Source: Escherichia coli (GTDB lineage: Bacteria > Pseudomonadota > Gammaproteobacteria > Enterobacterales > Enterobacteriaceae). Taken from it: 64,000 bases of DNA. Shown here piece after piece: positions 24,501 through 27,500 of the stretch; the stretch's first letter is position 1; each line of letters begins with the position of its first letter. Made by a program: the position numbers. The stretch is taken from NCBI RefSeq assembly GCF_017348835.2, contig NZ_CP071375.1. One strand, given 5' to 3'.

Positions 24501-27500
24501 TATATAAAGATACATTTGTTTGCATAGCTATCGCTGTATTAGGAGTTTACTTAATTAAAAATGACTATCAATTTGTTGGATGGTCAACTTATATTATTGC
24601 TGGTGCATTATCTATACTGGCATCGACCACCACCATTAAAATGATTGGAGACAAACGAAAGTCAGAGGAAACAAGTAACTCAGGATTCTTGCTGTTGTTA
24701 TTCTTCAGCCTGTTTTCGATAATAATTCTAGTTGCTGGTTTAGTTAAGGGGGTAAAGGATGTTATGTAAATATCAAAAAAGGAGTATGCTTAATGAACAA
24801 TAATAATAAATCATCTAGCCAAGCAGACTTCTGGACAGTTTTGTTTAACGGAGTAACAGAGATCGTAAAAATGATCTTTTCTATAATCATAGCTATTGTT
24901 GTTGCCGGAAGCAAAACCCCCAGTACATCAGCCGAAGATAAAACATTACATACAGGTTATCGGCATAATAACGACAAATCTGTACATTTTGACAATGATG
25001 CTTAACCTAATAAATATCCTCCGGCATAGCCGGAGGTTTTTCAAATGCGCCTATAAGGCTCTCTTACCAGCCGCGCCCTAACAGGCGCACACGATCTGAC
25101 ATTTGCATCCAACTTCGTTACTTACGGCCCGTAAACGGGCTGCCCGGATAGGGAATCGATAACTGCTCTCCCATTTTATCCTCTTCAAGCTGGTGCTTTA
25201 TGTAATCCTGTATCTTCGCCGTGTTCTTACCCACTGTATCGACGTAGTACCCTCTGCACCAGAACTCCCTGTTCCTGTATTTGAATTTCAAATCACCAAA
25301 CTGCTCGTAAAGCATCAGACTGCTTTTCCCTTTCAGATATCCCATAAAGCCGGATACGCTCATTTTGGGCGGGATCTCCACAAGCATATGGATATGATCT
25401 GCACAGCATTCAGCTTCCAGAATCCGTACACTTTTCCACTCACACAGCTTTCTCAAAATACTGCCTATTGCTCTACGCTTCTCTCTGTAGAACACCTGTC
25501 TTCGGTATTTTGGCGCAAAAACTATGCGATATTTACAGTTCCATCGGGTGTGCGCTAAGCTCTTTTCGTTCCCCATTGGGACCCCCTTTTGATTTCTTGT
25601 TTGACACTTGCAGTTGCCAGACCGCAAGGTGTTTTAACAAATCAAAAGGGGTTTTAATAACTGGCTCAAAGCTGAAAGCTTTCCGCAACCCCCAGCCTAG
25701 CTGGGGGTTTTCTGTGCACAAAAAAATAGGCAGTGAAACAGAACCCACTGCCTATCTCATAAAGTTAACCTTTCCCTTTAGATGCCCCTTTCGTTGCTAC
25801 TGTTTTAACGACCTCGCCAGCAACTCCTGGTCCTTTAGCTCCAGCCTGCTGCGATCCTTTGCTGGCATTATCAACTGCCGAAGATAATGCTCCACCGATT
25901 TGAACACCGCTCCAGCTCACAGCACCAAACCAGAACATCGGCAGCACCACATACATCGCCCCCAACACCAGATTCATGATCCAACCATCAGAGCCAGAAC
26001 TCGCAAGCCAATTATTGAAACTGTTGATGTATCCTCGATAACTGGCATATAAAAGCTGGATAAGTTTGTCATCCAGCCAGCCCCCAGTTCCCACCAAAAC
26101 GGAACAAAAATTATCGCAAACATCGCAAATGTAATAGTGACTACTACCTTTGGATCATACGCGCCAAACAACATCACCAGCGGAATGCATATCACTATAG
26201 CCATCAGTAAAATAGCATGAACCATAGGCAACGCCTGTCGAAGTGCATCAAACGCCGGTAACTGCGTCGCTTGCGCACTAAAAGCACCCAGGCCGCTTAG
26301 GAATTCTTTAATACCGGTGTCAATACCCGTTCCATGTCCTTGTTGATTCCCTATCATATAGGTATCACCACCTCCGGACATATGTATATTCTGTGGACTT
26401 ACCAACCAGCGAAGAAGGCTTTCCTCCCAATTATTCGGAGATTTCGCCTTCATCATATTGACTGTACGTTTATCAAAACTATCCAATAAACGACTTTTCA
26501 GCCCCTTCCCTGACGCGCTCCACCAGTCTTTGCACGTCGGATAATCGCCATCAAGCAGGAGAGTTTTGAGACCGGCATCGGCACATAAGCCTGCCAGGTT
26601 GGCAGATTTAGTAGACTTACCTTCACCGCCTTTGGTAGAAATTACTGAAATTACATGCATATAAGTCACCTGTATATGATTTACAGGTAACAAACGTTCT
26701 ATACGTGTTTAAATCAGGGATTGAAAATCCCCGTGTCCTTGGTTCGATTCCGAGTCCGGCACCAAATTCATATCAACGGACCTCCATGGAGGTCCGTTTT
26801 TCATTTCAGAGCTTTATTCTTCAGTGTCAACGTCATTGCCCGAATGTCATCGCGGGTATCCCCCAGTCAGACAGTGTTTGTGCCCTCTTTAACGTATACA
26901 GAGGGCTAACCTATGGCACTGACCGGCGCAGAAATCCAGGCAACAAAGCTCACAGACAAGGCTGATTCCACCCTATCCTGTCCAGAGCGAACTTCACGGA
27001 GCTGAAAAATTCAGAGGGCATATATAATGGATTAATGATATTGCCAAAGAGTATTATAGATTAGAACATCCCCACTGGTTTGCTTAGATAACTCGAATAT
27101 ATCTCTTAATAACAGAGCGTCATTACTTAAAGATATTTTTGTTTCCGATGTGTTTAAATCTGCACGTGAGCTACTTTTTGGTCTTAAAGTCAATTCGAAA
27201 GAACCATAGGACCATATAAATTTTAGAGTACATTTATTTCCTTTTACATTAGAGAATATTTTCACTTCCTCAGATGTATCTGTAAAACTTGATACATTAA
27301 TAGTCTCGGGGTTCCTGTTATCATTATTTAAGAAAATAAGATGAGACGGTTGTTTTACTCCATTGAAATAGTAGTGACACCCTCCTTCTCCAAAAACATG
27401 TGATGATTTCCCTGAAGATATATAAAACTCCGCCCCCGGATTAGTTACTTTGTATATAAACATGTCTTGGGAAGAAACAACTCTATAATTACCAAAGTCA

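Follow-up and report, generated by a model that had tools for sequence, protein, structure and literature searches.

The DNA analyzed in this work is a stretch of 64,000 nt from an Escherichia coli chromosome (contig NZ_CP071375.1; hereafter the window), in which the tRNA-Phe gene pheV is followed by an ICE remnant of about 9.3 kb. The remnant comprises attL, int, traI, some small genes, one IS3 and one IS200 insertion, a traG'-parA' fusion and attR. The features are given below with their coordinates and strand, followed in parentheses by the evidence used.

17433-17508, plus strand: tRNA-Phe gene pheV, adjoining yqgA/speC (ARAGORN; yqgA then tRNA-Phe in the PE164 annotation)
17460-17508, plus strand: attL, the 3' part of tRNA-Phe (direct repeat)
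17721-18683, minus strand: intact tyrosine recombinase gene (integrase, 320 aa) (ORF; PGAP annotation of the 99.9%-identical PE164; Pfam Phage_integrase)
18694-20085, minus strand: intact TraI_2-type relaxase gene (463 aa) (ORF; PE164 annotation; Pfam TraI_2 and TraI_2_C)
21561-22866, plus strand: IS3-family insertion (gap in colinearity with MS1170; PE164 annotation)
25015-25719, minus strand: IS200C insertion, tnpA at 25118-25576 (gap in colinearity with MS1170; PE164 annotation; Pfam Y1_Tnp)
25765-26080, minus strand: distal traG' segment, about TraG residues 407-509, in another frame than the proximal part; stop codon at 25765-25767 (Pfam; alignment with PE164 and MS1170)
26081-26085, minus strand: frameshift site, G5 on the coding strand, i.e., C5 on the plus strand (comparison with PE164; three-way alignment)
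26086-26541, minus strand: proximal traG' segment, about TraG residues 252 to 405, in frame with the parA stub (Pfam; blastn; hydropathy)
26541-26545, minus strand: deletion junction (nucleotide comparison with parA of three ICEs and with MS1170 traG)
26542-26660, minus strand: parA' stub, codons 1-40 including KGGEGKST (Pfam and NCBIfam N-terminus matches; DNA identity to 291-aa parA genes)
26717-26764, plus strand: attR, a copy of the 3' 49 nt of tRNA-Phe at which the ICE remnant ends distally (repeat search; comparison with sister strains and MS1170)

Coding content of the traG'-parA' region

An earlier note on this DNA had described a ParA-type Walker A start, a membrane-protein body and a frame change, and all three are present on the minus strand. 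ORF listing gave two overlapping minus-strand ORFs, 26693 to 25974 (239 aa from TTG) and 26097 to 25765 (110 aa). The TTG at 26693 is merely a mechanical extension of the first ORF; its biologically meaningful start is the ATG at 26660, which is preceded by an AGGTGA ribosome-binding site, and the product from this ATG begins MHVISVISTKGGEGKST. The deviant Walker A sequence KGGEGKST occupies residues 10-17 of the chimera. Its assignment to the ParA/Soj type is borne out by N-terminal matches in both Pfam and NCBIfam: residues 1-40 correspond to the first 36-41 positions of the Pfam profiles CbiA, AAA_31 and ParA (E values of 7e-8 to 3e-6), and NCBIfam ParA_partition is matched at positions 1-52 of 203 only, with 33.2 bits vs a cut-off of 180. 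The KGGxxK[ST] motif is thus found near the N-terminus as in ParA/Soj proteins, and a full-length ATPase fold scoring above the family cut-off is absent, the parA DNA homology ending at 26542.

The switch from ParA to TraG takes place at residue 40/41. Residues 33-193 match positions 200-377 of the TraG_N profile (PF07916) with an E value of 4.9e-17 and 62.5 bits, above the gathering score of 36.1. The second ORF, in the other frame, does continue the membrane protein as proposed earlier: it matches TraG_N positions 379-459, directly colinear with the first ORF, with a score of its own (20.8 bits) that lies below the cut-off. In place of a complete TraG_N domain of about 460 positions in one frame, the window therefore carries positions 200-459 split over two frames, and residues 1-251 of the 509-aa homologue, the N-terminal transmembrane region included, are absent from the chimera. 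The earlier description of a polytopic hydrophobic sequence within about 50 residues of the start holds for the beginning of the TraG body at residue 40/41 and fails for its hydropathy: in a Kyte-Doolittle scan the first ~100 TraG-derived residues are not hydrophobic, and hydrophobic segments do not begin before about residue 139, two of them lying in the proximal traG' segment.

The intact element at pheV in E. coli MS1170

An intact ICE of the PAPI-1/SPI-7/ICEEc2 type, about 47.7 kb long, is found at pheV in E. coli MS1170 (NZ_CP056077, about 2883.9-2931.6 kb). Its gene order starts with tRNA-Phe, int, traI, small genes (SH3, ArdC, antirestriction, cold-shock) and traG_N (509 aa), proceeds through the TIGR037xx ICE type IV secretion set, traD and the pilL region, and ends with topoisomerase III, a STY4528-type replication protein, parB, dnaB-PI, parA and attR. 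The backbone genes between int and parA, traG and traD included, are all co-oriented, with parA and traG as separate genes; parA is the first gene inside attR, and the same holds for the elements of DCE7 and O169:H41. The helicase in these ICEs is labeled "SPI-7-type island replicative DNA helicase" by NCBI. A passage in PMC11537424 names pheV and pheU as hotspots of ICEEc2, and another in PMC6761156 describes ICEEc2 as the PAPI-like element of E. coli in tRNA-Phe.

The remnant resembles the MS1170 element (ICEEc2/PAPI-1/pKLC102/SPI-7 type, MPF-G) in its site, the tRNA-Phe 3' end, in its repeat of about 49 nt, in the integrase, the TraI_2 relaxase and the order of the small genes at 95-96% DNA identity, and in having parA first at attR. 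Colinearity extends over window positions 14000-21560 (96.2%) and 22867-25014 (96.5%), followed by two distal blocks, 25720-26550 (the 3' part of traG) and 26542-26764 (the 5' part of parA plus attR). The repeats are 9,257 bp apart in the window vs the ~47.7-kb element in MS1170. The remnant lacks the DNA between the two join points (2884120-2919931 in MS1170, 35,812 bp), in which lay the remainder of parA along with dnaB, parB, the replication genes, topoisomerase III and traD, and the entire MPF-G T4SS set; it also carries the IS200C insertion, in a spacer of about 48 bp directly downstream of the traG stop codon, and an IS3 that replaces about 4.6 kb of ICE DNA. The replaced stretch contained the genes for SH3, ArdC and antirestriction, together with the greater part of an integrase-domain gene, of which only a stub is left next to IS3 (about 22867-22968). 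The ArdC and antirestriction genes are still present in sister strains.

Parent genes and the junction

The earlier note had called for a homology search to find the parent genes and the breakpoints, and such a search traced the region to the 5' end of parA and the 3' part of traG, with a join at TTA 26542-26544 and a frameshift at 26081-26085. In a megablast search against 5,426 complete E. coli genomes, the region split into matches to traG_N genes (about 25720-26550, 83-85%) and to the 5' end of ParA family genes (about 26540-26810, 90-95%); a single genome, that of the pig isolate PE164, covered the whole query (99.9%). Window positions 26542-26810 are 92-96% identical at the DNA level to the parA 5' end and upstream region of SPI-7-type ICEs, and positions 25720-26550 are 83-85% identical to the 3' 787 nt of the 509-aa traG_N gene (MS1170, LF82 and others). 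In blastn comparison with the extracted reference genes, the parA homology ends at 26542 (parA nucleotide 119) and the traG homology starts at 26550 (nucleotide 744 of 1530, MS1170 traG nt 744-1530).

The coding strand at the junction reads GAT GGC GAT TAT CCG ACG in the window, vs GAT GGC GAT TAC CGT CAG in MS1170 parA and CGT GGT GGT TAT CCG ACC in MS1170 traG. In the junction GGCGAT-TA-TCCGAC, parA-specific bases lead up to TTA and traG-specific bases come after it, and TTA itself is common to parA (GAT TAC C) and traG (GGT TAT C). The crossover falls within this TTA (26542-26544), a 3-nt microhomology inside an imperfect 8-of-11 match. The microhomology is 3 nt as measured against MS1170-type parA and possibly up to 5-6 nt against another allele; both its extent and the deleted length are estimates, because the traG' part is a mosaic and reaches no more than 83-85% identity with the best intact references from E. 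coli. ParA Tyr40 coincides with TraG Tyr251, and the fusion is therefore in frame, by chance. Judged from these bases, the junction bears the signature of an illegitimate event rather than a site-specific or homologous exchange. The comparisons show a chimera made of ParA residues 1-40 and TraG residues 252-509, and they support the earlier view that a deletion had fused a partition gene to a membrane gene, possibly of the transfer apparatus: the two genes are separate in MS1170, with 35.8 kb between the join points.

The mosaicism lies within traG' (25765-26541, minus strand): compared with MS1170 traG, its first ~540 nt show 68-85% identity and its last ~230 nt 93-100%; the ICE DNA adjoining traG' differs from it in being about 96% identical to MS1170. 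This pattern suggests past recombination between ICE variants inside traG.

The frameshift and its alleles

Across 1.3 kb, the window departs from PE164 only in the length of one homopolymer, by a single base (G5 vs G6 on the coding strand). The intact traG of MS1170 reads CTGGGCGACTGG (GGGCGA) at this site, the same length as in PE164, and the 777 traG-derived nt of PE164 align to MS1170 without a gap. Since PE164 and the intact traG are equal in length at the G run, the window allele is a -1 frameshift. It alters the chimera from residue 194, and the product ends at 228 aa. The unshifted allele (G6, 298 aa) is carried by PE164 and many draft assemblies. The exact 228-aa product was found on 13 contigs, including GCA_019365765.1, GCA_022538675.1 and SRR19633707; its presence in at least three independent samples indicates a real mutation.

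Attachment sites and retained functions

The att direct repeat is perfect over 43 nt (17460-17502 vs 26717-26759) and extends to 48-49 nt with one indel, reaching the CCA end. The window attR (26757-26764) is one G short (GAGTCCGGCACCA vs GAGTCCGGGCACCA), and the GGG is kept in attR of the sister strains L010 and L007 and of MS1170. Identity to sister strains with the native yghD flank ends exactly at 26764. The parA stub lies 57 nt from attR, the repeat of the tRNA-Phe 3' end, so that the fusion does mark the decayed distal end of the pheV element, as had been supposed.

Two marks of a functional ICE, a tyrosine integrase next to a tRNA gene and flanking direct repeats of the tRNA 3' end, are thus retained. 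The MPF-G T4SS genes, traD and the parA-dnaB-parB module, all present in MS1170 and DCE7, were not found between the att repeats in the window. On this gene content, the remnant is predicted not to be self-transmissible.

Distribution and order of events

A search of 5.8 billion proteins returned 205 homologues, which fell into clusters of which only one combined the ParA-type and TraG_N domains. This cluster consists of 12 sequences at 90% identity, holds both the 298-aa and the 228-aa forms, and all of its members with a named source are E. coli. The remaining 204 homologues are either TraG_N proteins of ~500 aa (up to ~90% query coverage) or 291-aa ParA proteins (16-21%); the best TraG_N homologue (509 aa, 88% identity) is from Citrobacter portucalensis. 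An intact family with the same domain order, which the earlier note had named as evidence that would speak against a fusion, was looked for among these 205 homologues and was absent outside the single E. coli cluster.

All carriers of the integrase allele have in common a 9.7-kb chromosomal stretch next to the tRNA side of the remnant, with at least 99.92% identity among them (98.0% to MS1170), which places them in one clonal lineage. The parA-traG deletion and the IS200C insertion were seen in every carrier examined, including those without the later changes; these changes, the 4.6-kb deletion associated with IS3 and the frameshift, are each restricted to some of the carriers and hence arose later. 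Many carriers retain the ArdC/antirestriction genes and have the native yghD-gsp flank directly after attR.

Three different sequences were observed beyond attR at the same junction, i.e., native yghD-gsp, an island with a lymphostatin-type toxin, and an island with a P4-type integrase. Horizontal spread of the remnant was considered in this connection and rejected as unnecessary, the shared flank indicating a single clonal lineage with later downstream rearrangements. Among the carriers compared, no evidence was found for movement of the remnant after the deletion, and vertical inheritance in one clonal lineage would suffice for the distribution.

Origin of the chimera and alternative explanations

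We propose that 25765-26660 (minus strand) is, with a high degree of confidence, a non-functional chimeric pseudogene formed by a single microhomology-level deletion in a PAPI-1/SPI-7/ICEEc2-type ICE at pheV. Comparison with intact elements shows that the illegitimate deletion begins in parA, the gene nearest to attR, at codon 40 and extends as far as codon 251 of traG_N; it removed about 36 kb and joined the two gene fragments in frame by chance, probably in a single event. Loss of one G from the G6 run later split the chimera into two overlapping ORFs in the sublineage of the window strain.

The first 40 residues of the predicted product, including KGGxxK[ST], are 80-100% identical to the intact 291-aa ICE ParA, and everything past residue 40 of the PAPI-1-type ParA/Soj is missing. 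It is there that ParA proteins carry Walker A', Walker B and their dimer and DNA-contact regions. With only the P-loop remaining, ParA activity is presumably lost, and a 40-residue stub would be unable to bind or hydrolyse ATP as a ParA dimer. Compared with the full-length TraG_N mating-pair-formation proteins of ICEs (inner-membrane, ~500 aa), the chimera is colinear over residues 252-509, with the same length as MS1170 TraG there, and lacks residues 1-251 with their N-terminal hydrophobic helices; the window copy is frameshifted in addition at residue 194. TraG activity is probably lost as well because the N-terminal 251 residues, the first transmembrane helices included, are gone, and a TraG_N protein so shortened would not be expected to take its normal topology.

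Could the chimera nevertheless represent a real family under selection, with an intact architecture in which an N-terminal ParA P-loop precedes a membrane body like that of TraG? It is in frame in most carriers (298 aa), has a good ribosome-binding site and stands in RefSeq as an ordinary CDS. Against this, both domain types occur together only in the one cluster of near-identical sequences described above, the carriers all belong to one lineage, the ORF is already frameshifted in a sublineage, and the parts are fragments: the ParA part ends at position 40 of profiles that are 125-246 positions long, and the TraG_N part begins at position 200 of 462. A selected family is accordingly a most improbable reading. 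An equally improbable one is that the G run serves as a phase-variable or programmed-frameshift switch for a functional chimeric protein. It is true that G6 and G5 alleles both circulate in one clonal lineage, but five or six Gs are short for a contingency locus, and no slippery heptamer or other programmed-frameshift signal was noticed on reading the region by eye. Moreover, the gene is a truncated fragment of both parents, and the GGGCGA of intact traG makes the G run a recent accident of two substitutions.

An artefact of assembly or sequencing (chimeric contig, homopolymer miscall) as the source of the join, the frame change or both would be slightly easier to credit, since a single-base homopolymer difference is a classic error site and PE164, the nearest complete genome, has G6; we still regard it as very unlikely. 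The join is found in a finished chromosome and on at least 24 contigs, with 61 index blocks listed for the 298-aa form, and sources of the shifted product include two distinct GenBank assemblies as well as an SRA run independent of them.

Somewhat less remote, though still improbable, is a residual role of the remnant as a whole. The remnant (roughly 9-13 kb) has kept the two att repeats, and its integrase and TraI_2 relaxase are both intact, so that it might still excise and, where an ICEEc2-type element is co-resident, be mobilised by it in trans; it would then behave as a mobilisable island derived from an ICE. On the same reading, the in-frame chimera might be expressed from the parA signals as a small membrane protein with some interfering or excluding effect. 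The 298-aa ORF keeps the parA ribosome-binding site and may thus be expressed as a chimeric membrane protein; a simple scan, to which little weight is given, found no sigma-70-like promoter in 25600-27050. A passage in PMC2704930, citing Qiu et al. 2006, reports that Soj of PAPI-1 is needed for maintenance of that element; a circle of the remnant, if excised, would on that ground be expected to be poorly maintained.

The chimeric pseudogene is an ordinary scar of element decay, and its significance is mostly one of annotation. RefSeq gives both alleles (WP_089553178.1 and WP_241098378.1) a misleading single-domain name, and they are better regarded as pseudogene fragments derived from two genes. 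The junction can also serve as a clean marker of a single E. coli lineage, a clone, and the region around it records the order of decay events at pheV.

Sequences beyond attR

Directly beyond attR lies an intact ORF of 2,978 aa (27032-35968, minus strand) for a lymphostatin (LifA/Efa1)-type toxin with Pfam matches to TcdB_N, TcdA_TcdB, Gly_transf_sug and Lymphostatin_delI. A P4-type integrase remnant of about 16 codons (MALTGAEIQATKLTDK; 26913-27005, plus strand) is located between attR and the toxin gene, and a full 421-aa P4-type integrase is found at that position in the sister contig L007. After the tRNA fragment of attR there is a strong terminator-like hairpin (26775-26798, plus strand), AACGGACCTCCATGGAGGTCCGTT followed by a T-run. 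It is unlike the native pheV terminator that follows attR in sister strains and MS1170, which indicates that the DNA beyond attR is of other origin than the native flank; sister strains of the window lineage have the native yghD-gsp flank there instead.

Further downstream, a tRNA with the CAT anticodon (38732-38807, minus strand) faces pheV (17433-17508, plus strand) at a distance of 21 kb; it was called Met by ARAGORN and Ile by PGAP (ileX-like, adjoining mug and rpoD). It is followed by mug, rpoD and dnaG through ribB, to about position 64000, in an order opposite to that of the K-12 map; this arrangement implies that roughly 100 kb have been inverted, the ends of the inversion lying in the islands.
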